64,000 nt of DNA from an uncultured Candidatus Saccharibacteria bacterium. Lineage in GTDB: Bacteria; Patescibacteriota; CALEFQ01. The stretch spans positions 289,184 through 353,183 of the forward strand of contig OZ246404.1 of the NCBI GenBank assembly GCA_965230955.1, read 5' to 3'. Below the pieces are notes generated by a model, which did no database searches, was not told the DNA's origin, and saw only the letters and a program-made list of their open reading frames with translations. Below, piece after piece: positions 2,299-35,612 of the stretch. Each line of letters opens with the position of its first letter. Positions within the stretch are counted from its first letter, which is position 1. The position numbers and the translations under genes are program-made.

Positions 2299-3069
2299 AT
2301 GAAGTCCAAAAACACATCCTCTAATGATGCTACGGCTCAAGTTTATGACATTGTCTGGGGGCCATTCACTAATCGAACCAAAACGGAACGAGAAGTGAAA
2401 TTCGTTTCCCGGCGCATTCGAGCCGGCGGAACCATTTTGGATCTGGGCTGTGGCACGGGGCGCCATTTGATTCCTTTGGCCCGGCGCGGATACCGCCTGG
2501 TCGGCATAGATAATTCCCGAAAGATGCTTGATATTCTGCGAAAAAAAATATCCGCGCACATGTTTCCACCCCGCCTGATTTTCGGTGATTTGCAGAGAAA
2601 AATAAAATTGCCCTTGGCTGACGGGGCAATTTGTTTTTGGAATGCTTTTTGTGAAATGGCGCTGACACCGGCGGCGGCCAAGCGAATTTTCCGGGCGGTC
2701 AATCAATCACTGAAAAAGCCGGGGATGTTTTTAATCGAGACGCCTAATCCGTTGATCATGGATTTGCGGGCCGGAGAATTCAGGAATTCGATCAGCCGGC
2801 GCGGAATCAAATATGATATACGGTTTTGGATAAAACATTATGATGTCAGGCGTAAAATTTTGACGGCGGAAGAGGAAGTGACCATTATCCGAAAAGGGCA
2901 GGTGTCGATAAAGCTCCGAGCGGCGTGCCGGCAGAAACTGTGGTCGGCGCGCGAACTCAAACTTTTGGCGCGCCAAGCCGGTTTGGCGCACCAGGAATTG
3001 CGGGGCGATGGTTTTGGCCGATTTTCTCGGGGATCTTCCCGCCATCAGATACAGGTGTTCTCGAAGTAA
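2299..3069 (+). CDS. Class I SAM-dependent methyltransferase
   Basis: Motif I ILDLGCGTGRH and a Rossmann-type layout; GGAGGG RBS upstream. Confidence 0.65.
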   Translation: MKSKNTSSNDATAQVYDIVWGPFTNRTKTEREVKFVSRRIRAGGTILDLGCGTGRHLIPLARRGYRLVGIDNSRKMLDILRKKISAHMFPPRLIFGDLQRKIKLPLADGAICFWNAFCEMALTPAAAKRIFRAVNQSLKKPGMFLIETPNPLIMDLRAGEFRNSISRRGIKYDIRFWIKHYDVRRKILTAEEEVTIIRKGQVSIKLRAACRQKLWSARELKLLARQAGLAHQELRGDGFGRFSRGSSRHQIQVFSK

Positions 3070-3077
3070 TCAAAAAA

Positions 3078-3140
3078 ACTCCCCCCACACTCAGGATTTG
3101 AAATATCCTTTCCAATGCCTGAGTGTGTGGGGAGTTTTAA
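3078..3140. repeat. Hairpin element of the CCCCACACTCAGG family (copy 1) between convergent genes; probable bidirectional terminator
   Basis: AACTCCCCCCACACTCAGG-loop-CCTGAGTGTGTGGGGAGTT. Stem and loop are near-identical to the copy at 59389-59454. Confidence 0.6.
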
Positions 3141-3148
3141 ATTGGAGC

Positions 3149-5323
3149 CTAGGGATTACCCAACATGATGCCGACAACCTTCGAGCCGTTGAGGAGATAG
3201 GCTTTGTTGGTGGTTTCATCTATGGCCATCCCGCGCAGATCGGTGAAGGTATCGGAGATGTATTGGTTTTTCATTTGACCGTCTTTGTCGAAAACCACCA
3301 GGCGTTTGTTTTGAGGATCGAGTATATAAATGCTGGCGGAATTTTCGTTGGTATAAATGGCGGTCGGCTGGTTTAGCGGAGTAGTCATTTCTCCCAGGTT
3401 GAATTCTTGGCGATTGCCGCGCAGAAATTTCAGTACCCGGCCGTCGCTGGTCAGGACATAAACCGAGCCGTCAATAGTGAGGTCTACCGCGCCGCTGAGA
3501 TCAACATCTTCCGTTAGCCAGTTGCTGGGCTTGGAAAAACCGCCGACTGTCAGTGAATGGCGTTGAATTCGATTATTGGCCGGATCAAGCGTGTAGAGCC
3601 GGTTCCCGAAAAGGCTAAGGGCCACGATTTGTTGGTCGGCGGGGAGCTCCGCGTCGGCTTCGTCCACGCTGGTGCCGTTAAAGGTGAAGCTGATCAGGGC
3701 CGGACTCGAGGATAGCAGAGCGACTTCTTTTTCGCTGTTGGCGATTGCTTTCAGCTGACCGGATGTTTTAACTTCCACGGCTTCAAATTTTTTGTCGCTC
3801 AGAAGATAAGTGTAAATTGAAGGCTGATTGGGATTGTATGAGGCCAAATATTTATCAGCCAGGATTAAGCCTTGGGGATTCACTCCGTTGCCCAGAGTGG
3901 AAAAATCTGCAACTGATTCCGGATTTTCCACCAGGGTGATGTGGTTGAGGCGCTGGCGTTCTTTTTCGATTTGGGCCAGAACGGCGGCGGCTTCATCATT
4001 GCGGTATTTAGTGGCTTGGACATCCTCGGCAATCTTTTGCGACTCATCTAATAATTGGCGCGCCTTGGCGTCGTTGCCGTAGATCAGAGCGGCCTGAGCC
4101 TCTTCTTGTTTCTGGCGGGCTTCGGTGGTGAGATTGTTGTATATCGCTCGTTGTTCTTGTGTCTGTTTACCGCCTTGTACCGCGAATAGGCTGATCAAAA
4201 AGGCGATGATCAGCGCCACAACGACAATGAAGAGTATTTTGCTGGTTTTGGGCAGCTTGTTGAACCAAGTGACGAATGATTCCCAGATTACTTTGCTTAA
4301 GTTCTGAATTGTCAGTAATAATTTTTTCCACCAGGGTTTGCGGCGCAAATCGGTATAAGCATAGGGCTTCCGGCTGGTGAGCGGTTCTTGGAGAGAGGGA
4401 GCCGCAGCGGATGGTTTTGGAGTTCTGGCAGTTTTGTCGTTTGACGCGATTTTCTTCCCTTTGAGTAACGGTAAAATTGTATTCTTGGTGCCGGAGGCTG
4501 TCTTGGCCGCGATTGAACGCAGGATGCGTGATGTTCGAGCTAAGGCTCCCGGGGTCTGTCGGGGAGTGGCGCCGGCTCGGGGCGCGCTTTCCGACTTAAC
4601 GGTGATATTTGGCATTGCGGCCGGTGCGGGGAGAGGTGACTTGGCCGGATCGGCTGCACTGACAATCAAGGCCGCCATGGCTTTCTTTTCCTGGAAAGAC
4701 ACCAATTTGCTCTGCAGGTGGCGTGCCGCAATATCAGGGGTAAAACGATCGATAATTTCTTTTATCTTTGGTTTTTCGATGTAGTCGAGGATGGAAGGTG
4801 AGAGAAAGACGAACTTGTCGTCGGGATTGAGTTTGCCGTTGATTATATTTTCGTAAGTTTTGAGAGGGTTGGGTTTTAGCGGAACCGAAGAGCTCTCTTT
4901 ATTGAGATGGGCCAGCTGTTGTCGGCGAACCAGAAAGGCGGAAGCGAGTCCGGAAGAAGTCAGGAATATTTCCTCTCCGACGATGGCGGTGATAACGCTG
5001 TTTAGTTTTCCGATCCAGCTGATTTCTCCGGCGGAGGCGAGGTCGCCCAGGATATCATTGACGCGCTTGATGGCGTACTCGAATTGTTGCTCGGCGGTTC
5101 GCTCGCTGGGGTGGTAGTATTCGTTTTGCATGATGGAAGCGATCGCTTCGGAAATTTCGGCGGTCTTGGGTGTTTTTTCGTCCGAGCTGATTAAGATCAT
5201 TAATCGTCCGTATGGTTCTTCTTCTTTTTCTTCCGGCTCAAAAACAAAAGTTTCAGCGAAGCCTTCGGAGGCATCGGGATTATAAATCAAAAGTTCGCTG
5301 ACGGTGGTATGTAGTTTGGGCAT
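3149..5323 (-). CDS. Membrane-anchored protein with a central TM helix and coiled coil plus a C-terminal NHL/YVTN-like beta-propeller repeat region
   Basis: 724 aa. TM segment FIVVVALIIAFLISLFAV, QEEAQA coiled-coil stretch, and C-terminal repeats of the type YTLDPANNRIQRH and IYILDPQNKRLVVFDKDG. Confidence 0.45.
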   Translation of the reverse strand: MPKLHTTVSELLIYNPDASEGFAETFVFEPEEKEEEPYGRLMILISSDEKTPKTAEISEAIASIMQNEYYHPSERTAEQQFEYAIKRVNDILGDLASAGEISWIGKLNSVITAIVGEEIFLTSSGLASAFLVRRQQLAHLNKESSSVPLKPNPLKTYENIINGKLNPDDKFVFLSPSILDYIEKPKIKEIIDRFTPDIAARHLQSKLVSFQEKKAMAALIVSAADPAKSPLPAPAAMPNITVKSESAPRAGATPRQTPGALARTSRILRSIAAKTASGTKNTILPLLKGKKIASNDKTARTPKPSAAAPSLQEPLTSRKPYAYTDLRRKPWWKKLLLTIQNLSKVIWESFVTWFNKLPKTSKILFIVVVALIIAFLISLFAVQGGKQTQEQRAIYNNLTTEARQKQEEAQAALIYGNDAKARQLLDESQKIAEDVQATKYRNDEAAAVLAQIEKERQRLNHITLVENPESVADFSTLGNGVNPQGLILADKYLASYNPNQPSIYTYLLSDKKFEAVEVKTSGQLKAIANSEKEVALLSSSPALISFTFNGTSVDEADAELPADQQIVALSLFGNRLYTLDPANNRIQRHSLTVGGFSKPSNWLTEDVDLSGAVDLTIDGSVYVLTSDGRVLKFLRGNRQEFNLGEMTTPLNQPTAIYTNENSASIYILDPQNKRLVVFDKDGQMKNQYISDTFTDLRGMAIDETTNKAYLLNGSKVVGIMLGNP

Positions 5324-5737
5324 AATGTCATTCTCAAAATAAATATCTGTTTTTTTGAGGGTGTTTTCTCGAAGCGACAGTTAAAATGCAGATGACCAAA
5401 GACGTAATTTAGTATAGTATCTTTGCCTGGTTTTCGCAAGGGGAAAATTTTTCTCGATTTGGCGTTGATTTGGAAACAATTTTTATGTTTGAGTCTGTTC
5501 TTAAGCCCGTGTCTCGGAAATCGAGGGGAGTGATATAGGGGAATTGGGACTAAAATTGTTCGGGCTGAACAAAATATCTTTACAACTGAACAACGGTCTT
5601 ATATACTAACTAAATATATGTGTTCATCATGTCTCGCCCAATGCTATCTCGGTGTGGCGGATGCTTCCGATCTGGGGCTATTGCTAAATTCGGTATCGGA
5701 GCGGCTTAATACTATTCATAATCCCTAATATTTTCAT

Positions 5738-6316
5738 ATGCTGGAACATCTTTTTAGCTCAAAAGTCCGAATCAAACTTCTCAGTCTCTTCCTGCTCAAT
5801 CCCGACCAGACTTATTATGTTCGGGAATTGACTCGTCGTCTCAATGAGCGAATCAACTCCATTCGGCGGGAGCTTGATAATCTTCAGAAATTGGGCTTGT
5901 TGGTCAGCCATACGGAAGACCGCAAAAAATACTACACCGTTAATCGCGATTTTGAAATTTTTGAAGAATTGCGCTCGCTGATTATCAAATCCGGCGTTAC
6001 GCCGCAGGAAAAAGCTATGCGGATGCTCCAGGCTCTGAAAGGCGTACACTTGGTCATTTTAACCGGCGTTTTTACTCAGCAAAGATTGCCCAAGACCGAT
6101 TTGTTGTTGGTTGGCGCGCCGAAGCGAGAAAAACTTCTGGACGCAGTGGCCGAGCTGGAAAAGACTGTCGGCAAGCAGATTCGGTATTCCGTGATTGATC
6201 AAAATGAGTATGATTACCGCCGTACCATGCATGATTTATTTTTGAGCGATATCGTTTCCAGTGAACACATCAAAGTATTAGATAGAACACCAAAGAAAAA
6301 AGAAGTGAAACAATAG
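5738..6316 (+). CDS. Winged-helix DNA-binding protein (putative transcriptional regulator)
   Basis: N-terminal wHTH-like segment VRIKLLSLFLLNPDQTYYVRELTRRLNERINSIRRELDNLQKLGLL. Confidence 0.4.
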   Translation: MLEHLFSSKVRIKLLSLFLLNPDQTYYVRELTRRLNERINSIRRELDNLQKLGLLVSHTEDRKKYYTVNRDFEIFEELRSLIIKSGVTPQEKAMRMLQALKGVHLVILTGVFTQQRLPKTDLLLVGAPKREKLLDAVAELEKTVGKQIRYSVIDQNEYDYRRTMHDLFLSDIVSSEHIKVLDRTPKKKEVKQ

Positions 6317-6461: not shown

Positions 6462-9140
6462 GTGATCTTATTCATGTATATGAAAGCACCCTCTTTTTTT
6501 AGGCTCAAACAACCGATTGAGCTAGGCTCGGTATTCTTGGCTGTATTGGTAACTTTGTTTTTGGTTAATAATAGCCTAAATGTTCAGGCGCAATTGCCCC
6601 AGGACTTGAATCTTGCCCAACCGGCCGATAAGGCCATTGGTGGTCAAGACGACGGTCGGGCCGATGCGCTTTTTATATTTTCAGCCGAAAGTGATACTCA
6701 GATGCGGACGACAATTGATCAGATTGAACAACAAAACGGCACGGTGACTAATCGTTTTCCGCCAAAAATCGCTTGGGGAAAATTGCCGCGCGACCAGGCC
6801 GGTCAAGTCGATCAGTTGCCGGGAGTCGAGGCGGTTCGTTTCGAGCAGGTCGATCCCTCTGATTTCGGTATTATCGATCCAGCTTCTATGGCCGGAATAA
6901 ATTCATGGAACGCTCATTTTGTGGCGGCGCCGGTGAAACCGGATAGCGGCCAGCCTTTAGTCAAAGATGATCTCGCTCCCGCGCCGAACTTGGATGGTCG
7001 CGCGGCAAAATTGGCTGGTATGGCTCAGCCCGATGCCCGGCAAGCCCGGTCCAATGATGCCTATCGGGCTCCGAACGGTGCCGGGTTTTATGATACGACG
7101 GAATACATGGCCGGCAATATTTCGGTGGCGGTGATTTTGCCCGAGAGTACCGGGGCCATTGACGCACAGACTGAATCCTGGGATTTGGCGCGCGAATCAG
7201 CCGTGGCGACTGAAGTCCAAAACGGCGTCAATTGGTGGTACAATCGAGAGCCGGCGGCGCAGATGTCTTTTACCTATCATTTTTATTACGGACGGACCGA
7301 TAGCCGGGCGCGCACCAGTTATGAGCCGATCACGCGAGCGGCTGATCCGTACGGCGAAAACGGCGAAAACTTATGGGTCAGTGAGATTATGCATAATTTC
7401 GGATATAGCGATTCGCAACGGCTGGACAAAGTCCGTCACTTCAACAACGATATGCGCGAATCGGACGGCTCGGATTGGGCGGTAACGTATTTTGTGGCGG
7501 ACAGTCTCAATGACGGCAATGGCGCTTTTGCCGATAACTATTTTGCCTACATGTGGATCGGCGGGCCGTATTCGGTCATGACTTATGACAACGACGGCTA
7601 CAGCATTTCAAATATGGACGCGGTCACGGCTCATGAATTTGGCCACGCTTTCTATGCCAACGATCAATATTCTTCGGCGTGTTCTTGCGACGAGCACCGC
7701 GGGTATTTGGATTATTATAATTATAACTGTGAAAATTCTTGCCCGCATAATGTTTATAGTATTATGCGCGGCCAGATATATCCTTATTCGGTCGGAGCGG
7801 TCGATATGTACGCCCGGGGGCAACTCGGAATCATCGATACTGAGCGTAATGGAATATTAGATGTGCTGGAAACGGCCCCGGATATTGAAATAGGCGAAGT
7901 GGAAGGGGGAATCGGCACGACCCATCCCACCATGACCGGCAGTACTTCGGTCACAAAAGTGGAAAACAAAAATCCTTACGGTCTGGGGAACGATATCACG
8001 GTGGCTAAAATTTCTACCGTTCAATGCCGGGCGGACGACGGCGAATGGGAAGAGGGCGAGGCGAACGATGGCGGTTTTAATGAAACGTCCGAAGATTTTT
8101 CTTGTTCACTGAATATTTCTCGCGGACGGCATACGATCGAGGTACGTTCCCGGGATAACTATAACAATTACAGCGAGACGAAAAAAATCACCCTTTCTTC
8201 CGGCGAGGCGCGGATTATTACTGTCCCTGGCAACGGCGGCGGACCGCAAGTGCGGGAGTTTTCTACCGCCGGCAAGACTCAACCGGAAAGTTTTTTTGCC
8301 TTTCCTTCTTATACTCGCAACGGCGCTCGGGTCAGTACCGGTGACGTCGATAAAGACGGAGGCGTGGAAATCGTAGCCGGTAGCGGGATCGGCGCCCAGC
8401 CGCACGTGGTGGTTTATGAAAAAAACGGTTCCAAGCGCGGCATCGATTATCGTCCCTTTGCTTCTTCTTTCCGAGGCGGAGTTGATGTGGCCAGCGGCGA
8501 TGTCGACGGTGACGGCAAAGATGAAATTGTCACCAGTCAGTTTACTCAGGGGCATCAAGTAAAAGTTTACCGCTATAATTCCAGCCGACAGATATTGGCG
8601 ACTTTTTCTCCTTTTGGGAAAATCACGGCGGGAGTGACGGTGGCGACCGGCGATGTTGATGAAGACGGGGTTAAGGAAGTAATTTGCGGCGCCAGTGTCG
8701 GGGGCGGGCCGCACATCCGGGTTTATGATATGAAAAACGGCCAGGCGGTCCTGAAATCAAATAGTTTCTTCGCTTTTCATAAAGATTCGCGTACTGGAGT
8801 TGATGTGTCCAGTGGCGATGTTAATGCCGACGGCGTTGATGAAATCGTGGTCAGCCAGCTTTATAACGGCGAGGCTTGGATGAAAGTCTATCAGTATAAT
8901 TCCGCTCGCACCGTTCTTGGTTCCTGGCGAGCTTTTCCGGCGGGCGTGGAGTGCGGCGCCAACGTGGAGATGATGGATGTTGATGGCGACGGACGCAGTG
9001 AAATACTGGTGGGACCGAATACCGGCGGCGGGCCGCAGGTGCGAGCCTTCGAGTACAATGGGACAGCCAAGAGTTTAAATTTCTTCGCTTATAGCAAAAG
9101 TTTCCGCGGCGGCGTCGTGCCGACGGGGGGATACTTCTAA
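6462..9140 (+). CDS. Secreted zinc metalloprotease (HEFGH zincin, M6/M64-like) with C-terminal FG-GAP beta-propeller repeats
   Basis: Signal peptide, then HExxH motif VTAHEFGHAFYANDQY. Repeated [ST]GDVDxDGxxEIV units (TGDVDKDGGVEIVAGSG, SGDVDGDGKDEIVTSQ, TGDVDEDGVKEVICGAS and others) are typical FG-GAP. Confidence 0.65.
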   Translation: MILFMYMKAPSFFRLKQPIELGSVFLAVLVTLFLVNNSLNVQAQLPQDLNLAQPADKAIGGQDDGRADALFIFSAESDTQMRTTIDQIEQQNGTVTNRFPPKIAWGKLPRDQAGQVDQLPGVEAVRFEQVDPSDFGIIDPASMAGINSWNAHFVAAPVKPDSGQPLVKDDLAPAPNLDGRAAKLAGMAQPDARQARSNDAYRAPNGAGFYDTTEYMAGNISVAVILPESTGAIDAQTESWDLARESAVATEVQNGVNWWYNREPAAQMSFTYHFYYGRTDSRARTSYEPITRAADPYGENGENLWVSEIMHNFGYSDSQRLDKVRHFNNDMRESDGSDWAVTYFVADSLNDGNGAFADNYFAYMWIGGPYSVMTYDNDGYSISNMDAVTAHEFGHAFYANDQYSSACSCDEHRGYLDYYNYNCENSCPHNVYSIMRGQIYPYSVGAVDMYARGQLGIIDTERNGILDVLETAPDIEIGEVEGGIGTTHPTMTGSTSVTKVENKNPYGLGNDITVAKISTVQCRADDGEWEEGEANDGGFNETSEDFSCSLNISRGRHTIEVRSRDNYNNYSETKKITLSSGEARIITVPGNGGGPQVREFSTAGKTQPESFFAFPSYTRNGARVSTGDVDKDGGVEIVAGSGIGAQPHVVVYEKNGSKRGIDYRPFASSFRGGVDVASGDVDGDGKDEIVTSQFTQGHQVKVYRYNSSRQILATFSPFGKITAGVTVATGDVDEDGVKEVICGASVGGGPHIRVYDMKNGQAVLKSNSFFAFHKDSRTGVDVSSGDVNADGVDEIVVSQLYNGEAWMKVYQYNSARTVLGSWRAFPAGVECGANVEMMDVDGDGRSEILVGPNTGGGPQVRAFEYNGTAKSLNFFAYSKSFRGGVVPTGGYF

Positions 9141-9229: not shown

Positions 9230-9658
9230 CTATTTTTCCCGGTAGCGGTAGTCATAAGTCGCGTAGGCGACTGTCAGCTCTTCGCCTTTTTTTATCTCCC
9301 GAGAGGTGGTGAAATTTACGCCCTCTTGCGCTATCTTTAGATTCGGGGCATCGGAAGTATTGAGAAAAAAAGATATATCCATGCCGTTCAGGGCGCAATC
9401 GGGAACGGAAATCATGCCATCGGCTTCGGTCACATAAAAATCATAGATCATTTTTTGGACTTCCGGATCTAATGTTTTTAATTCAGCCGGGCTGAATTTG
9501 TACCATTGATGTTTCGTGACTCCGGGAAAGGGATTGGTATTTTGGGGGATATCTCTGATCGCAAAAATTCCGATTCCGGCGATAGCCGATGTCTTCAAGC
9601 GGCAGTAGGTATTTTTTAGGTTTTCTAATAGTTGTTTCTTGTCGGGTGGCGTAATCAT
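9230..9658 (-). CDS. SET-domain protein (putative protein lysine methyltransferase)
   Basis: SET motifs AGIGIFA (GxG), LNTSDAPN (NHS-like) and EELTVAYATY (ELxxxY). Confidence 0.55.
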   Translation of the reverse strand: MITPPDKKQLLENLKNTYCRLKTSAIAGIGIFAIRDIPQNTNPFPGVTKHQWYKFSPAELKTLDPEVQKMIYDFYVTEADGMISVPDCALNGMDISFFLNTSDAPNLKIAQEGVNFTTSREIKKGEELTVAYATYDYRYREK

Positions 9659-9841
9659 AATTTATATTTATTTCGAATCGACCGCTCCTGAATTATAGTT
9701 AATATGGGAGCAGGTGGCAAATCCGGCTGGTCGGTAAAAATTTTTAAAAATCACAATTTTATCATTCGTTTCAGCTTTTCGGAGCTTGAATAATTTTGGC
9801 TTTGACGGAAGTCGGTGCTAACTCTGTGTATGGGCTAATTA

Positions 9842-9870
9842 TTGACAGAGACCGTCTTGTGTGTTATAGA
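9842..9870 (+). promoter_or_regulatory. Sigma70-like promoter TTGACA-N17-TGtTATAGA
   Basis: -35 at 9842-9847 and extended -10 at 9861-9870, upstream of the AGGAGG RBS and ATG at 9919. Confidence 0.4.
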
Positions 9871-9918
9871 TACATTATCTGAACTGGTTGGCAGTTTCAG
9901 TCTTGAAAGGAGGCGGTT

Positions 9919-10281
9919 ATGCTACCATATGTGGAAACGCGACGTTGTTTTGCACTTCCTCGTAGGTGCAGGGAAGGAAATTTCGAGATTCCAGCCTCGC
10001 AGAATCTATTTTGGCTGGAAGAAGTTGGTTCAGGAGAATTTGTCATCGTTTCTCAATCCGTTATTGACAAAATTCCCGAATCGGACAGGATTTCGGTGGC
10101 TGATTCCAGTTGCCAGCCCGAGTTTGCTGTTTATGACGTTGCGGGGACTCTGATGCCATCGGGAGAGTTCTGGTTGCCTTGTGAAGAGGCAACAAAAAAA
10201 GGACAAATGGTTTTCCGGCTCACGGCCGAGATGGTTCAGGTCCATTTGCCGAATTCTTTCCGGATTTTTCAGGAACCATAG
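9919..10281 (+). CDS. Hypothetical protein
   Basis: ATG preceded by AGGAGG at 9907-9912; no recognisable domain. Confidence 0.35.
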   Translation: MLPYVETRRCFALPRRCREGNFEIPASQNLFWLEEVGSGEFVIVSQSVIDKIPESDRISVADSSCQPEFAVYDVAGTLMPSGEFWLPCEEATKKGQMVFRLTAEMVQVHLPNSFRIFQEP

Positions 10282-10363
10282 TCAATCTGGTGCTTGCCTC
10301 CCGATTCATTTGCGGGAGGCTTTTTCTATTGACCGAACGAGCCGCTTGTCCTACGCTACAGAT

Positions 10364-11632
10364 ATGAAAAAAAAGGAAACTCTCTTTGATCGAAAAAACA
10401 ACGCCATCCCGTCAAATGCGCCTGCACCGCTGGCCGATCGGATGCGCCCCGCGCGCTTGGCTGATTTTGTCGGGCAGGATCATGTGCTCAGCGCCGACAA
10501 ACTGTTACCGCGACTGATTTTTAATGATGAATTATCTTCTTTGATTTTCTGGGGGCCACCGGGAGTGGGGAAGACCACGCTGGCGAAAATTATCGCCCAA
10601 CTGACAAAAGCGCATTTCATTTGTTATAGCGCCGTGCAAGTGGGAACCAAAGAGGTCAAAGAAGAAATCGCGCAAGCGGAACAGCGCTGGCTGCTGACTA
10701 AACGGCGCACGATTCTTTTTTTGGATGAAATTCATCGTTTCAATAAAGCCCAGCAGGATGTGTTGTTGCCCCACGTGGAATCCGGACGTTTGATACTTAT
10801 CGGCGCGACCACCGAAAATCCGTCTTTCTCCGTCATCCCCGCTCTGCTCTCGCGCTGTCGGGTTATTGTTTTGCATCGACTGGGAGAGTTGGATCTGAAA
10901 AAGCTGATCAAACGCGTCCTGGTTGACAAAGCGCAGGGCCTCGGCCGCCAAAAATTAAAAATCGCGTCGGCGGCGACGGATTTTTTGATCGATCTCAGTC
11001 AGGGCGATGCCCGGGCATTGTACACGATCTTGGAGATCGCGGCGCGCGGGAAGAAAAATGGCTCGACCATCGCCGTGGCCGATATCAGCAACGCCGCCAT
11101 GAGCCGGAGCATGATTTATGATAAAAACGGCGAAGAACATTACAATGTCATTTCCGCCCTGCATAAAAGTCTGCGTGACAGCGACCAAGACGCGGCGCTG
11201 TACTGGATGGCGCGGATGATTGAGGCGGGGGAGGATCCGCTCTATGTCGTGCGGCGGCTGCTTCGTTTCGCTTCGGAAGACATCGGGAATGCCGATCCGC
11301 AAGCTTTGATCTTGGCGGTGAGTGTGATGGAGACGATCAAGTTCGTCGGAATGCCGGAGAGTAACGCCGCGCTGGCGCAGTTAGTAATTTATCTCGCAAA
11401 AGCGCCAAAAGATAATACCGCTTACGTCGCCTATGGCTTGGCTTCGGCCGACGCCAAGAAGACGAGCAACGAGCCGGTGCCGATTCACTTGCGCAACGCC
11501 CCGACTAAGTTGATGAAAGAGCTGGGTTATGGCCAAGGCTATAAATACGCGCATAACTTCAAAGACGCCAAGGTGGATCAAGAGCATTTTCCGGGGAAGT
11601 TGAGGGGGAGGAAGTATATAAAAAAAACCTAA
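10364..11632 (+). CDS. rarA: Replication-associated recombination protein A (MgsA/RarA AAA+ ATPase)
   Basis: Walker [12 protein letters not shown], Walker [11 protein letters not shown], and the RarA-type C-terminal domain. Start chosen at the internal [11 protein letters not shown] (10364). Confidence 0.85.
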
Positions 11633-11728
11633 GGTCACTGCCTGCCGGTAGGCAGATCCCAATGTCAAAAATCGCTCTTGCCTTTTGCTCCCTGCTTTGT
11701 TATAATATGCCTAATTAAATAAAACCTT

Positions 11729-13690
11729 ATGAAAACTAAGATTAGGTTTAGTCTGGTGGCGGTTATTATTATGGCCGCTATTTTAGTTTTCACCGGCTGG
11801 CAGTGTCCGAAAAAGCCGGCAACTGACGCCGAAGGATTCCAGCATTTCAGTTCGGGAGATGAATTGGTCCAGGCTTTCCAGAAAGTGCATGATGATAAGC
11901 AGAGTTCCAAGAGTGAGATGGCCGAAGGGACCGGATTGACCGTTCCGCAAGCGGCTCCCGGTACAGCGAGTTCTGATGGTCGCGGCGGCGGGGAATTTTC
12001 CGAGACCAATGTTCAGGTGGCCGGCGTGGATGAAGCCGATATTGTCAAAACCAACGGCGAATATATTTATGCGCTGGCGCAGGGTAATCTGGTGGTCAGT
12101 CGAGCCTATCCGGCGGAGCAGACCGAACTGGTGGCGACGGTCACAATGGGCGACTATGTTCCCGACGAAATGTTCATCGAAGGCAATCGCTTGCTGATTT
12201 TTGGGACTGAATCCGGCCGGACGACCGCGTCATCGTCAACGTCCAGCAGCGTACCGCCCCGCTACCGTTCGCTTTTCTCGGTGCGTTTGTACGACATCGC
12301 CAACCCGCGCGATCCCAAATTCGTGGAGCGGCATGATTTCGAAGGCAGTTACGTGACGGCGCGCAAAATCGCCGGCCAAGTCTATTTTGTTTTCAATACC
12401 TATCCTTCTTATCGTGCCGGAATCGACTGTGCCGAATTGGTGCCGGGATACAAAAGTAATCGGTCGGATGTCGTTCCCCAAGCGACTGATTTCCAGCCGA
12501 TTGTCCCCTGTGGCGATGTCGGCTATGTCGAACCGCTGCGGGCCGAGAATTTTATCACCGTGGCGTCGCTCTCCATGACCGATGATCGCCAGCCGGTGCA
12601 ATCAAAAGTGATTGTCGGCACCGGGCAAAATGTTTATGCTTCGCTGGATAATCTTTATGTCGCCCAGACCAATTATCCTTCGTATTACTGGTGGGAGTCG
12701 TATAATGCCAGCGATGAAAAAACCGTGGTTTCCAAGTTTAATTTGGACCAGGGTCAAGTGGCTTTTTCCGCCAACGGTGAAGTCCCCGGCCACATCTTGA
12801 ATCAGTTTTCGATGGATCAGTACGATAATCATTTCCGGATCGCCACGACCGTGGGCCAGGCCTGGAATGAAAAAGAAAAATCAAAGAATAATATTTATAT
12901 CCTGGATTCCGCCATGAAACAATCGGGAGCGCTGGAAGATCTGGCGCCGGGCGAAACCATTTACTCGGCTCGTTTTATGGGGGAGCGCGGCTACTTGGTG
13001 ACTTTTAAAAAAGTCGACCCTCTGTTTGTAGTCGACTTGTCGAATCACAGCAATCCGCGGGTGCTCGGTAAATTGAAAATCCCGGGCTACTCCGATTATT
13101 TGCATCCTTATGACGCCAACCATATCATCGGAATCGGCAAGGAGGCCGAAGATGCTTCCACGGCGGAGACCTCCAGCCGCAATTTGGATTTTGCCTGGTA
13201 TCAAGGACTGAAAATGGCGCTCTTTGATGTCACCGATGTGGCTAATCCGGTGGAAATGTATAAAGAGGTGATTGGCGATCGCGGGACCGATTCCCCGGTC
13301 CTTCATGATCATAAAGCTTTTCTTTTTGACAAGAAAAAGAATCTACTGGTAATCCCGATCAGCTTGGCGGAAATTCAGGGGGAGAGAACCGCGGCCAACC
13401 AATACGGCAATACGGTTTATCAGGGAGCTTATGTTTACGACCTGACGCTGGAAAAAGGCTTTAACCTCAAGGGACGGATCACTCACGTGACCGATGAATC
13501 GGTCTTTGTGAAGAGCGGATATTATTACGAGACACTGGAAGCGATTACGCGCAGTTTGTATATCGATAATGTTTTGTACACGCTGTCGCCCTCGCATCTC
13601 AAGGCTAATCGTTTGTCCGATCTGAGTCTGGTAAAAGAAGTTAATTTCCCCGCCGACGATACCGCCGGTGCCAGAAATTATTATTACTAA
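11729..13690 (+). CDS. Secreted beta-propeller protein (COG4880-like)
   Basis: N-terminal signal/TM segment; motif SETNVQVAGVDEADIVKTNGEYIYAL is typical of this archaeal/CPR beta-propeller family. Confidence 0.5.
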   Translation: MKTKIRFSLVAVIIMAAILVFTGWQCPKKPATDAEGFQHFSSGDELVQAFQKVHDDKQSSKSEMAEGTGLTVPQAAPGTASSDGRGGGEFSETNVQVAGVDEADIVKTNGEYIYALAQGNLVVSRAYPAEQTELVATVTMGDYVPDEMFIEGNRLLIFGTESGRTTASSSTSSSVPPRYRSLFSVRLYDIANPRDPKFVERHDFEGSYVTARKIAGQVYFVFNTYPSYRAGIDCAELVPGYKSNRSDVVPQATDFQPIVPCGDVGYVEPLRAENFITVASLSMTDDRQPVQSKVIVGTGQNVYASLDNLYVAQTNYPSYYWWESYNASDEKTVVSKFNLDQGQVAFSANGEVPGHILNQFSMDQYDNHFRIATTVGQAWNEKEKSKNNIYILDSAMKQSGALEDLAPGETIYSARFMGERGYLVTFKKVDPLFVVDLSNHSNPRVLGKLKIPGYSDYLHPYDANHIIGIGKEAEDASTAETSSRNLDFAWYQGLKMALFDVTDVANPVEMYKEVIGDRGTDSPVLHDHKAFLFDKKKNLLVIPISLAEIQGERTAANQYGNTVYQGAYVYDLTLEKGFNLKGRITHVTDESVFVKSGYYYETLEAITRSLYIDNVLYTLSPSHLKANRLSDLSLVKEVNFPADDTAGARNYYY

Positions 13691-15541
13691 ATGAACGAAT
13701 CACCGCGCCAAATCAAAAAAATAGTTTTACTGGAGCCGAAAGAAGAAGGCGTCAACGTGTTTTCGTTTTGTAAAATACCGCGGCTGGGTGTGCCCATCTT
13801 GGCGACTTTGTTGCGCGACCGGGGTTACGCGGTAAAAGTTTATATCGAGAAAATGGCGCCGATCAACTGGCGTGAAGTTTACTCGGCGGATTTGGTGGGA
13901 ATTTCGATTGTGACCAATACCGCTTTCCCCAGTTACCGGATGGCCCAAAAGATCCGTGCCCGCGGCATCCCGGTGGTCTTGGGCGGACCGCATCCGACTT
14001 TTGAGCCGGAAGAAGCTTTGCAGTACGGCGATTATGTTTTACGCGGCGAGGGCGAGGAAAGCCTGATTAAATTAATTGAAAATTTAAACCGGCGGGGAGA
14101 TTTGCGCCAGGTTGACGGTTTGTGCTTCTGGGATAAGGCTCGCCCCGTCTATAATAAAGCGGCGACTTTTTGTCCCAATATCAATATTACTCCAGATTTT
14201 TCTTTGATTCACGGGGCCAAAAAATTCTACAATCGCCGTTTTCATTTTGATGTATCCTCGCTGGAAGTCTTGACGACGCGTGGCTGTCCTTTCGGGTGTA
14301 AATTTTGTTCGGTGATCCAGATGTCGGGACGTAAGATGCGGGAGCGAAAGGTGGAGCAAGTGGTGGATGAGATCGAGCATCTGGTCACCACTTATCGCCA
14401 AAAAAAGATGTTTATCGTCGATGATAATTTTACGGCCAATCGCGATCGGGCCAAGAAACTTTTGCGCTTGATGATCGCGCGAAAAATTCAGGTGAAAATG
14501 TCGGCTCAGGTTCGGGTTGAAACAGCCAAGGATTCGGAATTGGTCCAGCTGATGAAATTGGCCGGTATCCATATGGTGCAGATCGGCCTGGAGTCGGTCA
14601 ATCCCGATACTCTGAAAAACTTCAACAAGCGCCAGCAAGTCGAAGACATGAAAGCGGCGATCAGGGCTTTTACCGATGTGGGAATATTTGTCCATGGCAT
14701 GTTTATCATCGGCTCCGATTATGATACGCCGGCTACGATCGATGTGACGATCAAATTTGCGCAAGAAATGGGTTTGGTGGCGATTCAGTTATTGCCGTTG
14801 GGGCCGTTGCCGGGGACGGAATTGACGGCGGAATTACTGCGTGAGAAACGTGTGATTACGCGCGACTGGAGTATTTATGACGGAAATCGAGTGGTTCTCT
14901 TTCCGCGGCGGATGCGGCCGTCGGCCAATCAGAAAGCCATCTTTCGCGGCTATAAAAAGTTTTATACTTTTACCCGTCCGTGGCGTTATATTTTGAAACG
15001 GCAATGGGGTTATGCCGGTATTGCTATTTTTGGCTATTTTGCCTCGCGTAGTTTTGAACGCCAGCTTGGTCCTTATATGCGCTTTCTTGAATCGGTGGAA
15101 AAGGGCAAGTATCGCCAGACGGCGACAGGCGAAGAAATCATTGAACCGGTACAGCACGAAACCGAGGAAGGAATGGCTGATAACAGTATCAGTCGTCGTT
15201 TGGCTAAATATTTTGGCCGGTATGTTCCGGTTTTGCCACAGCAAGACTCCAGGAACGTTTTTCCTTTTTCGCGCTTGCTCCCGCGCCGTTTGAAATTGCC
15301 GATGCTGTCTAATCATTCCTTGGGAAAATTTCCAAAACGTTTAGCGCGGATTTTACGCCGTAGTCAGCGTCCCTTGGTTTTGGATTTTTCCGGGGTGAAT
15401 ATAACCGATCAAAAATTCTGGATGAAAATCCACCAGGCAGTTAAGCCTTTTGGTCAGAGAGTTCGTTTGAAAGTCAAAGCCGGAACGGCGCGTCTCTGGA
15501 ACTTGAAAAATTTACGCAATTTGACTATTATTGACGGTTAG
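13691..15541 (+). CDS. B12-binding-domain radical SAM protein with an additional C-terminal roughly 200 aa extension (possible STAS-like tail)
   Basis: N-terminal cobalamin-binding-like domain (GISIVTNTAFPSYRMAQKIRARGIPVVLGGPHPT) and CxxxCxxC cluster TTRGCPFGCKFCS. The C-terminal segment LVLDFSGVNITDQ...RLKVKAGTARLWNLKNL resembles a STAS/anti-sigma-antagonist fold. The start ATG abuts the previous stop codon. Confidence 0.65.
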   Translation: MNESPRQIKKIVLLEPKEEGVNVFSFCKIPRLGVPILATLLRDRGYAVKVYIEKMAPINWREVYSADLVGISIVTNTAFPSYRMAQKIRARGIPVVLGGPHPTFEPEEALQYGDYVLRGEGEESLIKLIENLNRRGDLRQVDGLCFWDKARPVYNKAATFCPNINITPDFSLIHGAKKFYNRRFHFDVSSLEVLTTRGCPFGCKFCSVIQMSGRKMRERKVEQVVDEIEHLVTTYRQKKMFIVDDNFTANRDRAKKLLRLMIARKIQVKMSAQVRVETAKDSELVQLMKLAGIHMVQIGLESVNPDTLKNFNKRQQVEDMKAAIRAFTDVGIFVHGMFIIGSDYDTPATIDVTIKFAQEMGLVAIQLLPLGPLPGTELTAELLREKRVITRDWSIYDGNRVVLFPRRMRPSANQKAIFRGYKKFYTFTRPWRYILKRQWGYAGIAIFGYFASRSFERQLGPYMRFLESVEKGKYRQTATGEEIIEPVQHETEEGMADNSISRRLAKYFGRYVPVLPQQDSRNVFPFSRLLPRRLKLPMLSNHSLGKFPKRLARILRRSQRPLVLDFSGVNITDQKFWMKIHQAVKPFGQRVRLKVKAGTARLWNLKNLRNLTIIDG

Positions 15542-15713
15542 GGTCGGTTTGCTTTTGATCCAGTATGATGCTGGTTTTTTGTTGGAATAACTTGAAAGGG
15601 AGGCAGGAAATCGTAATTCTAATTTTGAAACTTGCTTACGCAAGCAAGTTCGATATAATTTCAGAGCCCGGTATTTGAGAGTCATAATTTCGTTTTGAAT
15701 TTATTTTTACCGT

Positions 15714-16616
15714 ATGCGCATCGGCATTCCCCAGGCATTTATTTACTACAAACATCCAGGACTCTGGGAAGATTTTTTTCGAACCCTGGGATTGGAAGTA
15801 ATCTTGTCCGGTACCACCAATCGGGATATTTTAGAAGCCGGCGTGCGTATCACCGAAAGTGAAAGCTGCCTGCCGGTCAAAATCTACTACGGGCACTGCC
15901 AAAAACTGCTGGAACAAAAAATAGACATTCTCTTTTCTCCGCGTTATATCAGCCTTAAGAAAAATCGCTTGGGCTGTCCCAAGTTTTTTGCCCTGGCGGA
16001 TGTTATTCCTTATATGTTTGACCGTCGGGTCAAGATTTGCGCGCCGTATGTCAATTTTAATGAAAAAGACTTAGCCGCTACTCTGCGCGCCGTGGCGCAA
16101 AAGTTGAATTTTTCTGATGAAAAAATCGAGTCGGTTTTGCCGGCGGTCTTGTCTCGGGAAGAGGCCCGGCGAGCCGAAAAACAACGCCAGTTCGAAAATG
16201 TCATGGCTTCATCCCGGCCGATCGTTTTACTGATCAGCCACCCTTATAATCTTTATGATTCTTTCGTCAACGCCGATTTGGTTCGGCAGTTGCGTCGTTT
16301 GAAGGTGGAAATTCTAATGATAGATTGGATTCCGGTCACGACGTCTCATCCGCAGGATTTCTTTTTCCACTGGGATTTCGCCGAAGAAATGCTGAATCAA
16401 GTGGATGAGGTGGTAAATAGTCGGATTGCCGGCGGGCTTCAGGTATCGACGTTTAATTGCGGCTGCGATTCGGTTATAAAAGAATTCGTCGAGAAAAAAT
16501 TCCGCGCCGCCCAGCGTCCGTATATGCCGTTGATTTTGGATGAACATACCGCCGAGGCGGGGATCAAGACGCGCTTGGAAGCTTTTGTCGATACTCTAAA
16601 AAAACGGAAAATTTAA
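15714..16616 (+). CDS. HgdAB/DUF2229-family subunit (acyl-CoA dehydratase/reductase-like, double-cubane-type), set A subunit 1
   Basis: N-terminus MRIGIPQAFIYYKHPGLWEDFFRTLGLEVILS. Conserved Cys in ESCLPVKIYYGH and FNCGCD, and a C-terminal LDEHTAEAGIKTRLEAFVD motif. Paralogous to 34652-35608. Confidence 0.6.
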   Translation: MRIGIPQAFIYYKHPGLWEDFFRTLGLEVILSGTTNRDILEAGVRITESESCLPVKIYYGHCQKLLEQKIDILFSPRYISLKKNRLGCPKFFALADVIPYMFDRRVKICAPYVNFNEKDLAATLRAVAQKLNFSDEKIESVLPAVLSREEARRAEKQRQFENVMASSRPIVLLISHPYNLYDSFVNADLVRQLRRLKVEILMIDWIPVTTSHPQDFFFHWDFAEEMLNQVDEVVNSRIAGGLQVSTFNCGCDSVIKEFVEKKFRAAQRPYMPLILDEHTAEAGIKTRLEAFVDTLKKRKI

Positions 16617-16617
16617 T

Positions 16618-17709
16618 ATGTCAAAACGAATACGTAAAATCACTTTTCCTCATATGGGGCACTACGATGCCGCTTTTGAGGAAATAATGCGGGCGATGGG
16701 TCATATTCCGGTCATGCCCGACCCGATCAATCGGGCGACGGTGGAAACGGGCGTGAAATACGCCCCGGAATTTATTTGTTTTCCCTGCAAAGTAAATATC
16801 GGCGATGAGTTGAACGGTATTGCCAAAGGCGCGGACACGGTGGTGATGTTTTCCTCGAACGGTCAATGTCGCTATCGATATTACGCGGCGGTTCAGCGAA
16901 AGATTTTACATGATTTGGGCCAGAAGATTGATTTTTTTATTTTCACTCCGCGAGATTGGCTGAAAAAATTCAGTGAATTGACTAATCGAAATTATTTCAG
17001 TTTGCTCCTTAGATTTGTCAGTGCTTGGCGCAAAGTGAAAACTACGGAACTGGTGGAGCAGCTCGGTTATTACTACCGTCCGCGCGCTCTGCATCCGGAA
17101 CGTGTCGGAGGCATTCAGCAACGTTGCTGGAAATTAATCAGCCAAACAAAGTTGAAGAGCTATTTTAATTACCGCCGTTTGAAGCGGCAGATCAGAGAGG
17201 AATTCGAGGAAATAGAAATCAAGGATAATTTCCAGCCGTTGCGAATCGGGATTATTGGAGAAATATATAGCGTCATCGAGCCTTTTGTGAATCAGAATAT
17301 CGAGGAGTCCCTGGGTAACCTGGGAGTGGAAGTGACGCGTCGGTTGAATTTATCTCATTTTGTAAAAGAATTTCAGCCGTGGAACAAACGGTACGAAGCG
17401 CGGTTGACCCGTCCTTATATCGGTTATGTGGTTGGCGGTCATGGTCGAACTTCCGTGCTGCATTTGCTAGAGTATTGCCGGGAAAATTTTGACGGCGTGA
17501 TCCATCTGGCGGTTTTCGGCTGTATGCCGGAAGTGACGGTTCGCCCGATCCTCTCAAAGATCAGTCAGCAAAAAAACATGCCGTTTATTTCTCTGTCCCT
17601 TGATGAGCATAGCGGCCAGGCGGGAGTCCAGACACGGGTGGAGGCGTTTGTGGATTTGATTAAAGGAAAAATCCGAAATCCGAAATCAGAAATCCGAAAC
17701 AATACTTAA
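16618..17709 (+). CDS. HgdAB/DUF2229-family subunit, set A subunit 2
   Basis: Conserved Cys in EFICFPCK and AVFGCMPE, and a C-terminal LDEHSGQAGVQTRVEAFVD motif. Paralogous to 35613-36773. The C-terminal tail IRNPKSEIRNNT is encoded by a GAAATCC heptamer repeat. Confidence 0.6.
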   Translation: MSKRIRKITFPHMGHYDAAFEEIMRAMGHIPVMPDPINRATVETGVKYAPEFICFPCKVNIGDELNGIAKGADTVVMFSSNGQCRYRYYAAVQRKILHDLGQKIDFFIFTPRDWLKKFSELTNRNYFSLLLRFVSAWRKVKTTELVEQLGYYYRPRALHPERVGGIQQRCWKLISQTKLKSYFNYRRLKRQIREEFEEIEIKDNFQPLRIGIIGEIYSVIEPFVNQNIEESLGNLGVEVTRRLNLSHFVKEFQPWNKRYEARLTRPYIGYVVGGHGRTSVLHLLEYCRENFDGVIHLAVFGCMPEVTVRPILSKISQQKNMPFISLSLDEHSGQAGVQTRVEAFVDLIKGKIRNPKSEIRNNT

Positions 17710-17815: not shown

Positions 17816-18031
17816 ATGTCCTTGAAAGAGTTTTTTCAGAAGAGGTTAGCTCGGGAAATGGGTATTCGCGAGGAAGAAGTGACCGAAAAACGCTGTGCCG
17901 AGTTTGTTCTCAGGCATTGCCCTCTGCGGCATCGTTCTTCGCCGGCTGATCGACGATTTAAGCATATCAGTCGGGAAGAATTCGAAGCGCTCAAGCGCAA
18001 TAACGATGCTTTTGCGGCCAGTCTGGATTGA
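17816..18031 (+). CDS. Hypothetical small protein (71 aa)
   Basis: AGGAGG RBS 7 nt upstream of the ATG; basic/Cys-containing protein; followed by hairpin CCCGGTAACAATAAAGTTACCGGG plus T-tract. Confidence 0.4.
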   Translation: MSLKEFFQKRLAREMGIREEEVTEKRCAEFVLRHCPLRHRSSPADRRFKHISREEFEALKRNNDAFAASLD

Positions 18032-18114
18032 TAGAAAAATCTTCCCACCACCCGGTAACAATAAAGTTACCGGGTTTTATTTTACTTGTTTGAAAGTTAT
18101 CCACACCTTAAATA

Positions 18115-18143
18115 TTGACGTTCGGTTTTTGTTCGGATATGAT
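18115..18143 (+). promoter_or_regulatory. Sigma70-like promoter TTGACG-N17-TATGAT for the small-ORF/lexA unit, overlapped by inverted repeat TTGTTCG(18129-18135)/CGAACAA(18155-18161)
   Basis: Read directly. The inverted-repeat half-sites resemble Gram-positive LexA (Cheo) half-sites but in non-canonical spacing. Confidence 0.35.
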
Positions 18144-18180
18144 CAGGGTGCAGGCGAACAAAATACGAATATATAAAAAT

Positions 18181-18336
18181 ATGACTGTCAAAAGTAAAAA
18201 TGACTTGGACAAAGTCCAGCTCTATATCCAAAAACTGCAAGAGATTAAAGGCTTCCTTCAGCAGGCCCACATTGAAGAACGAGAGGAAAAAGAAGGCCTG
18301 GATCTCCGAATCAATTGCTATTGGAATAACGTTTAA
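18181..18336 (+). CDS. Hypothetical small protein (51 aa) upstream of lexA
   Basis: ORF MTVKSKNDLDKVQLYIQKLQEIKGFLQQAHIEEREEKEGLDLRINCYWNNV, promoter upstream, GC hairpin (18341-18377) downstream. Confidence 0.35.
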   Translation: MTVKSKNDLDKVQLYIQKLQEIKGFLQQAHIEEREEKEGLDLRINCYWNNV

Positions 18337-18340
18337 TAAA

Positions 18341-18377
18341 CCAGGTGCGGCCTGCCGAATCGGCAGGCTGCCCCTGG
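18341..18377. repeat. GC-rich hairpin of the GCCGATTNGGC family: CCAGGTGCGGCCTGCCGAATCGGCAGGCTGCCCCTGG
   Basis: Near-identical to the hairpin at 2186-2222. Confidence 0.6.
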
Positions 18378-18391
18378 AACGGAATGATTTT

Positions 18392-19003
18392 ATGGGTAAA
18401 TCTTTGACTAAAAAACAGACTGAAATTTTGAATTACGTGGCTGATTTTGTGGGGGAGCACAGTTATGCTCCGAGTTACCGTGAGATCGCCCAGCACTTTA
18501 AATTGTCATCGGTAGCGACCGTCCATGATCACATTTCTTCTCTGGTGGCGAAAGGTTTCTTGCGCGATGCTGATGGTGAGGCGCGCGGGATTGAGTTGGT
18601 TACCAGAGAGGATCATCCCTTAAGTACGGTCGAGTCCTTGCCGCTTTTGGGTTTAATTGCGGCTGGGGAGCCGATTGAAGCCATTGAAAGTCAAGAGAGA
18701 ATCGATGTGCCGCAAAATATGCTTGGTTCCGGTGACTATTTTGCGTTGCAGGTAAAAGGATTGTCCATGATCGAAGATGGAATCAACGATGGGGATTTTG
18801 TTATCGTGGAAAAACGCAGTGTCGCCAACAATGGCGATATCGTGGTGGCCTTGCTTAATGGCCGTGATGCTACATTGAAGCGCTTTTATCAGGAAGCACA
18901 GCGTGTTCGCTTGGAGCCGGCAAATTCCAGCATGAAACCGATCTTTGTCCGGCAGGGACTGCAAATCCAGGGCAAAGTTGTGGGGCTGATGCGTAAATAT
19001 TAA
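18392..19003 (+). CDS. lexA: LexA repressor (S24 peptidase)
   Basis: N-terminal wHTH (LTKKQTEILNYVADFVGEHSYAPSYREIAQHF) and a C-terminal S24 domain with GLSMIEDGINDGDFVIVEK and the Ser/Lys dyad region. Confidence 0.85.
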   Translation: MGKSLTKKQTEILNYVADFVGEHSYAPSYREIAQHFKLSSVATVHDHISSLVAKGFLRDADGEARGIELVTREDHPLSTVESLPLLGLIAAGEPIEAIESQERIDVPQNMLGSGDYFALQVKGLSMIEDGINDGDFVIVEKRSVANNGDIVVALLNGRDATLKRFYQEAQRVRLEPANSSMKPIFVRQGLQIQGKVVGLMRKY

Positions 19004-32117: not shown

Positions 32118-32122
32118 TCAAT

Positions 32123-32623: not shown

Positions 32624-32681
32624 CCAGATTATTTATTAAAAGTTTAATCCCGTCCCGGGATTAAACAGCAAGCTAAATATC

Positions 32682-34568: not shown

Positions 34569-34587
34569 CAGTCGTTAATAATGTTCC

Positions 34588-34630
34588 GGTAGGGGCAGGC
34601 CCCGCCGATTCGGCGGGGGCCGCCCCTACC
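34588..34630. repeat. GC-rich hairpin of the GCCGATTCGGC family: GGTAGGGGCAGGCCCCGCCGATTCGGCGGGGGCCGCCCCTACC
   Basis: Nested perfect palindrome downstream of dnaK. Confidence 0.6.
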
Positions 34631-34651
34631 AATGCAAAAAACCACTATCAA

Positions 34652-35608: not shown

Positions 35609-35612
35609 TTAT

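Follow-up and report, generated by a model that had tools for sequence, protein, structure and literature searches.

The window analysed here is a stretch of 64,000 nucleotides from an uncultured Candidatus Saccharibacteria bacterium (contig OZ246404.1), a lineage of the candidate phyla radiation (CPR). Four consecutive genes encode a beta-propeller protein, a B12-binding radical S-adenosylmethionine (radical SAM) protein and two reductase subunits, A1 and A2, which together form set A. Judged from gene and domain arrangements, evolution has coupled the radical SAM family to Red1, the DUF2229 type of subunit: the two are fused in other phyla and adjacent in CPR. The four genes are as follows.

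11729-13690, plus strand: beta-propeller gene, 653 amino acids (aa), PF09826 Beta_propel (Pfam E 2e-170)
13691-15541, plus strand: radical SAM gene, 616 aa, B12-binding PF02310 and Radical_SAM PF04055
15714-16616, plus strand: A1 gene, 300 aa, DUF2229 (E 4.5e-45)
16618-17709, plus strand: A2 gene, 363 aa, C-terminal HGD-D and a weak DUF2229

The first-pass annotation of this stretch had placed the four open reading frames (ORFs) exactly. The beta-propeller stop codon TAA (13688-13690) abuts the radical SAM ATG at 13691, the gap before A1, given as about 170 bp, measures 172 nt, and A1 and A2 are 1 nt apart.

The radical SAM protein matches the B12-binding domain PF02310 at residues 29-125 (57.2 bits against a Pfam cut-off of 32.1) and PF04055 with 88.3 bits against 29.5 (core residues 194-357). 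The motif TTRGCPFGCKFCS occupies residues 195-207, and the cysteines of its CxxxCxxC (C199, C203 and C206) are invariant across 24 homologues. A conserved hydrophobic linker lies at about residues 440-455. By its domains the protein is a class-B radical SAM protein, and its use of cobalamin is predicted. The class proposed in the first-pass annotation was thereby upheld by profile search, and no named NCBIfam equivalog was reached, HpnR, PhpK and the ladderane radical SAM enzyme included: the best, BchE, scored 168 bits against a cut-off of 481, with HpnJ at 133 against 578, TIGR04072 at 126 against 360 and QCMT at 89.5 against 360. Solved relatives are AprD4, QCMT, TokK and TsrM, and the likeness is generic. 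The best full-length one is QCMT (9ccb; E 8e-13, 51 bits), a protein glutamine C-methyltransferase (PMC12931638). Like BchE, HpnJ, QCMT, TokK, the ladderane-lipid radical SAM enzyme, GrsA/B and Gmm, the protein joins an N-terminal B12-binding Rossmann domain to a CxxxCxxC core. Unlike these characterised class-B enzymes, it belongs to a large family of its own, with C-terminal STAS-like or DUF2229-like modules that are unreported for them.

The family comprises 2071 proteins at E <= 1e-10 among 8000 candidates scored, and the window has a single gene of this family. Members occur in Nitrospirota, Desulfobacterota, Bacillota, Aminicenantes, Armatimonadota, Elusimicrobia and other mostly anaerobic lineages. 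The closest relatives of the window protein are labelled Patescibacteria, Saccharibacteria or ACD, which agrees with the earlier description of the genome as CPR-like. Three architectures are found: the core alone (about 460 aa), the core with a STAS-like tail, and the core with a DUF2229-like tail. A STAS-like tail is typical of the CPR clade and occurs in about 14 of the 79 representative non-CPR genomes as well, mostly in Bacillota. Clustering of the flanking ORFs at 81 non-CPR loci gave no recurrent metabolic neighbour; what emerged were sigma-54 regulators (22 loci), MltD-like proteins and lineage-specific housekeeping genes.

DUF2229-like C-terminal domains are present in about 18 of the 79 representative non-CPR homologues, mostly Nitrospirota, with Schekmanbacteria and other phyla represented too. 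An hhalign comparison over 138 columns shows this non-CPR tail to be a homologue of the DUF2229 N-terminal half (probability 97.4%, E 1e-11). Pfam DUF2229 matches four of nine such tails and, reciprocally, the tail profile matches true DUF2229 proteins. The longest fusions (L025 of Schekmanbacteria with 820 aa, L096 and L103) contain a near-complete DUF2229 with all three Cys-ligand positions (SESCLPVK, QYCTKL, GSEGCFSS). In the short fusion forms the domain is degraded to docking-like stubs without Cys. Since fusion in other phyla and adjacency in CPR are two independent lines, a functional link between the radical SAM protein and set A is supported, and the fusion provides the best evidence for this putative link. 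The fusion had been missed by the first-pass annotation. We regard it as new together with the coupling and the STAS-like variant, for which no description was found in the searchable literature, while every component belongs to a known superfamily. Red2 or activator partners beside the non-CPR fusions were considered and rejected, with profile searches negative outside the Elusimicrobia locus L059. On the contig from ERZ27297473 (L008), a 325-aa HGD-D gene lies at 5182-6159 on the opposite strand, two genes 5' of a DUF2229-tailed radical SAM homologue, and a HepT/MNT toxin-antitoxin pair separates the two. This HGD-D gene represents another HGD-D subfamily, because the Red2 profile missed it.

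The CPR protein ends differently from these fusions, in the following segment.

15209-15538, plus strand: STAS-like tail of the radical SAM protein, residues 507-616 (the last approximately 110), from AlphaFold2 and Foldseek

The AlphaFold2 model of the tail has a predicted local distance difference test score (pLDDT) of 73.8 and a predicted template modelling score (pTM) of 0.66, with elements in the order beta-alpha-beta-alpha-beta-alpha. STAS proteins such as RsbS, SpoIIAA and RsfB fill Foldseek PDB ranks 1-9 (TM 0.45-0.61, probability 0.96-1.0). The tail of the window protein has no match to Pfam STAS or STAS_2 even at E <= 10. Among 11 tails scanned, STAS/STAS_2 are the top Pfam families for two, presumably the two from Bacillota, and these matches are weak (E 0.002-0.007). 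No bridge from the tail to canonical STAS domains emerged when 1.84 billion proteins were searched exhaustively by profile; the six matches were fragments of the same family. As the model matches STAS but the profiles miss, a STAS-like fold is moderately supported by structure prediction, and membership at the sequence level is unsupported. The proposal of a STAS-like tail in the first-pass annotation therefore holds for the fold (nine STAS matches in PDB) but finds no sequence-level support in the window protein. The tail resembles STAS domains (SpoIIAA, RsbS/RsbV, MlaB, the C-terminus of SLC26/YchM) in predicted topology and best PDB matches. It differs from known ones in being joined to an enzyme, not to a transporter or partner-switching module, and in having no conserved phospho-Ser: in CPR tails the phosphorylatable Ser/Thr of the anti-sigma-antagonist subclass is not conserved, the residue after the conserved Asp being Q, Y, P, S or K. 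An origin of the CPR tail as a diverged tail of the DUF2229 N-terminal type was rejected (hhalign probability 3.8% against those tails and 0.2% against DUF2229). In one Bacillota locus (L006, JAAYFF010000046.1), a stand-alone 100-aa STAS protein (PF01740, 6388-6690) lies directly 5' of a STAS-tailed radical SAM homologue. The arrangement may be a sign of partner switching between STAS proteins in this lineage; at E < 1e-5, none of the other Bacillota loci has a stand-alone STAS neighbour.

A1 reaches 154 bits against the Pfam DUF2229 gathering threshold of 29.4, and A2 matches both HGD-D (43.6 bits against 28.4) and DUF2229 (36.3 against 29.4). Three cysteines are invariant in each family: C52, C88 and C249 across 25 sequences of the A1 family, and C54, C84 and C302 across eight sequences of the A2 family, which comprises A2, its paralogue B2 and Red2 and includes one fused protein. 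The AlphaFold2 model of A1 (pLDDT 90.3) has as its top nine PDB fold matches the beta subunit of 2-hydroxyisocaproyl-CoA dehydratase, the double-cubane cluster protein DCCP and MbdO/N (E down to 7e-9, TM 0.55-0.60), among them 3o3n_B, 7yyl, 6eno and 9gai_B. In sequence searches of PDB, A2 matches DCCP (E 7e-4) and HAD beta. Moreover, A1 is collinear with residues 396-708 (E 2e-45) and A2 with residues 782-1143 of a fused activator-Red1-Red2 protein of Elusimicrobia (L059), to which set A is 23-30% identical. Going by their sequences, A1 and A2 belong to the ATP-driven HAD/BCR/double-cubane superfamily as a Red1/Red2 pair split over two genes, each subunit having three Cys ligands for a predicted [4Fe-4S] cluster. 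Fold and cysteines thus bear out the HgdAB/DUF2229-like pair of the first-pass annotation.

Set A resembles HgdAB/HadBC, class I benzoyl-CoA reductases and DCCP in the fold of A1, in having three Cys per subunit and in a C-terminal motif that can be aligned to DCCP and HAD beta. The subunits are smaller (300 and 363 aa compared to 375-440 aa in HAD, BCR and DCCP), sequence likeness is confined to about 65 C-terminal residues, and no CoA-ester pathway genes are nearby. A2 stays below the curated cut-offs for double_cubane NF040772 (16.7 bits against 350) and BCR-C TIGR02263 (18.5 against 421). In domain content, the window proteins can also be likened to PlsA/PlsR (plasmalogen synthase) and Ger (glycerol ester reductase), with the reference proteins CPE1194/1195 and Tmari_0479, respectively, through the domain set of BcrAD_BadFG, DUF2229 and HGD-D. 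Ger and PlsA/PlsR combine two BcrAD_BadFG domains with DUF2229 and HGD-D ('Act1/Act2, Red1/Red2'), the architecture also of L059, and a function has been published for it as well (PMC13159169; PMC12838417). Unlike PlsA/Ger, the window system is split into proteins of about 300, 360 and 326 aa, has one ATPase domain instead of two and is spread over two loci. An ATPase gene is missing from set A, and the only one seen lies 19 kb away. That ATPase belongs to a second group of genes.

34652-35608, plus strand: Red1 of set B, paralogue of A1
35613-36773, plus strand: Red2 of set B, paralogue of A2
36853-37833, plus strand: HgdC-type ATPase ('archerase' activator), BcrAD_BadFG (E 2e-47)

Set B and the ATPase were found where the first-pass annotation had placed them. 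The ATPase adjoins set B and is the sole HgdC-type activator in the window, and set A indeed has none. It retains the two Cys of the bridging cluster and matches 1hux (E 2e-37). The comparison of sets that the first-pass annotation had suggested gave identities of 30% and 25% for the two subunits and invariant Cys in A2, B2 and Red2. Typical CPR cassettes are closer to set A (38-48% identity) than to set B (25-34%). The ATPase might plausibly serve set A in trans, beside set B, since no other activator is present in the window and since its counterpart in L092, the partner of an A-like pair, shares 58% identity with it. Split cassettes of DUF2229, HGD-D and activator genes are common in CPR. 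The iron-sulfur (Fe-S) systems are thus not unusual there, against the earlier suggestion. Set B and the ATPase, together with two trypsin-like/HtrA proteases (37860-38597 and 38634-39896), sit between dnaK (32682-34568) and dnaJ (40200-41279). With hrcA and grpE 5' of this stretch (region 31350-41279), the Fe-S reductase cassette is located within a heat-shock chaperone cluster. In a Nealsonbacteria genome (L091, CP179887.1), the BcrAD_BadFG activator of a CPR cassette at 9362-11215 is split by an intein with a LAGLIDADG homing endonuclease, giving a 617-aa product.

We compared eight CPR lineages (the window, L176/177, L004/5, L010/L093, L174/175, L001/2, L003 and L094). An intact set A lies directly 3' of the radical SAM gene in the first five. 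The three others differ in what is left of it: L001/2 carries a chimeric stub of A1 residues 1-56 and a C-terminal fragment with a ligand Cys changed to Gly, L003 has A2 residues 153-361 alone, and L094 has no remnant of set A. All five lineages with A-type pairs (>= 54% identity to A1) have the pair right after the radical SAM gene, and the CPR loci examined held no A-type pair in any other place. The next-nearest A1 homologues (<= 47%) belong to cassettes that contain an activator. Changes in the flanks leave the block in place. L176 keeps beta-propeller, radical SAM, A1 and A2 with Ddl upstream instead of RarA, and L010 keeps the radical SAM-A1-A2 core with a gene for a 1475-aa surface protein downstream instead of lexA, its upstream side being beyond the contig end. 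A scan of metagenome contigs for loci of the CPR clade found two, one of them new.

The beta-propeller protein has an N-terminal hydrophobic signal or anchor segment and is predicted to be exported. Its gene lies 5' of the radical SAM gene in five of the six CPR lineages with a visible upstream side. L174 has radical SAM, A1 and A2 genes and neither a beta-propeller gene nor a remnant of one. A 54-aa ORF 5' of the radical SAM gene in L174 was considered as a beta-propeller remnant or precursor peptide and rejected, being of low complexity and without similarity to the beta-propeller. At approximately 150 non-CPR homologue loci no beta-propeller neighbour was found, and the link is restricted to the CPR clade. 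The beta-propeller is thus not a general partner of the radical SAM gene. The radical SAM gene is the constant element, and the beta-propeller and set A are both accessories.

Several elements bear on the transcription of the four genes.

11678-11706, plus strand: sigma-70-like promoter candidate 5' of the beta-propeller gene, TTGCCT-17-TATAAT with extended TG (TGnTATAAT)
15542-15713, plus strand: spacer between radical SAM and A1 genes, with a weak hairpin and T-run at 15560-15574 and an 8-bp palindrome at 15631-15650
17816-18031, plus strand: small ORF, 71 aa, ribosome-binding site GGAGG, located 3' of A2 and 5' of the terminator at 18050-18075
18050-18075, plus strand: strong intrinsic terminator, 10-bp GC-rich stem and T-run

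The promoter candidate has 10 of 12 matches, the top score in the region on consensus match alone. The first-pass annotation had proposed an operon and named beforehand a strong terminator between 15541 and 15714 as the feature that would divide it. No significant terminator is present there: the sole candidate, the hairpin at 15560-15574, was rejected because it folds like shuffled sequence (-5.8 kcal/mol, z -0.03). The terminator at 18050-18075 folds with -17.3 kcal/mol (z -4.45), and none of 200 shuffles equals it. Gaps between radical SAM and A1 genes are 5 nt in L174 and 3 nt in L176. Given the missing terminator before A1, the strong one at 18050-18075 and the 3-5 nt gaps in relatives, the beta-propeller, radical SAM, A1 and A2 genes are most likely co-transcribed as one unit of about 11.7-18.1 kb. 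The operon proposal was thereby strengthened, also by the neighbours kept in five of eight CPR lineages. Riboswitch control was rejected, as Rfam found no riboswitch, cobalamin-binding ones included, in the window and matched tRNAs alone. A defence-system identity was rejected too: PADLOC matched the radical SAM protein only generically, to PDC-M51A (77 bits), and returned nothing for the other five proteins.

The spacer contains a perfect 8-bp palindrome, ACTTGCTT-ACGC-AAGCAAGT at 15631-15650 (-10.9 kcal/mol, z -2.8), that has no T-run; instead of a terminator, it may represent an operator or an RNA element. The 71-aa ORF at 17816-18031 has no match in Pfam or PADLOC. Small ORFs are called at the equivalent position 5' of lexA in L001, L004 and L174, matched by position and including loci without set A. 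The 71-aa ORF is probably the final gene of the transcript, or else goes with lexA. The lexA ORF itself is called at 18200-19003 with 267 aa, compared to 203-204 aa in relatives, and translation probably begins about 63 codons further in, at the internal Met that precedes GKSLTKKQTEIL. GTTCGG / CGAAC-like repeats lie 5' of lexA at about 18115-18165. On the upstream side, a gene for an 892-aa surface protein with FG-GAP repeats (6462-9140) lies two genes 5' of the beta-propeller gene, the intervening genes being RarA/MgsA (10181-11632) and, on the opposite strand, a SET-domain-like gene (9230-9658). In L003 the FG-GAP gene (2914-5553) directly adjoins the beta-propeller gene on its upstream side. 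GC skew is positive in nearly all 2-kb bins of the window, cumulative skew climbs from 1 to 64000 and long ORFs are nearly all on the plus strand, which places the window within one replichore with strong co-orientation.

With slightly better than even confidence, we suggest that the radical SAM enzyme of the CPR-clade operon shares its substrate with a Red1/Red2 reductase of the archerase type and that the two act jointly. Electrons would come through the HgdC-type ATPase at 36853, which would take one from a low-potential donor and, upon ATP hydrolysis, inject it into the clusters of A1 and A2. The pair might then carry out a ketyl-type reduction or dehydration of the same, probably hydrophobic, substrate as the radical SAM enzyme, or feed the radical SAM chemistry. 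The radical SAM enzyme itself would modify the shared substrate through H-atom abstraction. The STAS-like tail could be a protein-docking or regulatory module in place of the DUF2229 domain fused in other phyla. Set A would be an accessory that extends the pathway and not an essential part of it.

CPR bacteria generally have no lipid synthesis of their own and depend on their hosts, and the substrate class that we would favour is a host-derived membrane glycerolipid. We propose such a lipid with low confidence, by analogy with PlsA/Ger, which convert ester to ether, and with B12-dependent radical SAM enzymes that modify lipids. Precedents for the latter are GrsA/B, Gmm and HpnP/R (PMC13459092). 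The same review places Mss, the membrane-spanning lipid synthase, beside Tes and Gms, which are auxiliary-cluster enzymes, and not among the B12-binding radical SAM enzymes (PMC13459092); going by this description, an identity as Mss is unlikely. The published criterion for Mss is >= 30% identity with E <= 1e-50 to Tmari_0825 / WP_129545148.1 (PMC13159169). A composite enzyme that combines H-atom abstraction by the radical SAM protein with an ATP-boosted one-electron reduction, turning the ester lipids of a CPR host into ether or otherwise modified lipids, is a similarly speculative extension.

A number of observations weigh against joint action on a shared substrate. Set A was lost by three different deletions (L001/2, L003, L094) with the radical SAM gene intact. 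As the deletions spared it, the radical SAM protein works without set A, and set A is an accessory; the interdependence implied by the first-pass annotation did not survive these independent losses. Profile searches found no Red2 or activator gene within 8-10 kb of the non-CPR homologues, L059 excepted. Promoter-like hexamers in the 172-nt spacer of the window could give A1/A2 a separate promoter. The ATPase presumed to act in trans is distant from set A in a genome known here from a 64-kb window. Neither the radical SAM protein nor set A has a characterised orthologue, all NCBIfam equivalog scores being far below cut-off. The lipid substrate is pure analogy.

The same losses and promoter-like sites would fit an arrangement of mere neighbours, in which beta-propeller and radical SAM form one unit, A1/A2 are a displaced CPR cassette with the role of set B, and the synteny is inherited. 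The region from RarA to MraZ is mostly syntenic across the clade, hence the adjacency is partly inherited, and set A is 38-48% identical to stand-alone cassettes. We nevertheless consider coincidental proximity improbable. It leaves the independent radical SAM-DUF2229 fusions in distant phyla unexplained, no A-type pair was seen apart from the radical SAM gene, the gene block survives changes of its flanks, and the 3-5 nt gaps in L174 and L176 imply translational coupling. A role as maturase would shift the focus to the beta-propeller. The radical SAM enzyme would modify the co-encoded protein before secretion, for example as a C-methyltransferase (compare QCMT/Mmp10 acting on methyl-coenzyme M reductase, or anaerobic sulfatase maturases), with A1/A2 peripheral. 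The beta-propeller stop codon abuts or overlaps the radical SAM start in the window, L001 and L176, the pair is kept where set A was lost, and the best full-length solved relative is QCMT. That likeness, at 51 bits, is however at the generic class-B level, L174 combines radical SAM, A1 and A2 with neither a beta-propeller nor a remnant, and the beta-propeller is beside none of about 150 non-CPR homologues, all of which makes a maturase quite unlikely.

We rate slightly lower still the idea that, in organisms with little flavodoxin or ferredoxin, A1/A2 and the ATPase are a dedicated system of low-potential electron delivery that activates the radical SAM [4Fe-4S] cluster reductively or provides an auxiliary cluster. 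That the fused DUF2229 of other phyla is an auxiliary-cluster domain appears just as doubtful. The superfamily is suited to ATP-driven electron injection, with structures of DCCP:DCCP-R and the HAD activator among the matches, and fused forms are without catalytic partner genes nearby. Long fusions retain the DUF2229 Cys ligands, the short ones being Cys-less stubs. Reduction of radical SAM clusters by an archerase-type system is however without precedent, the radical SAM gene outlasts the loss of set A, and the extra domain is absent in about half of the family.

The operon pairs two enzyme types known for anaerobic lipid modification and is one candidate route for membrane remodelling in CPR bacteria. 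Whatever the substrate, fusion and adjacency connect a class-B radical SAM family of more than 2000 members with the DUF2229 of HAD/BCR-type reductases. This provides a first functional handle on groups annotated as 'B12-binding radical SAM protein' and 'acyl-CoA dehydratase activase-related protein', and suggests that two modes of radical generation may combine in a single system.

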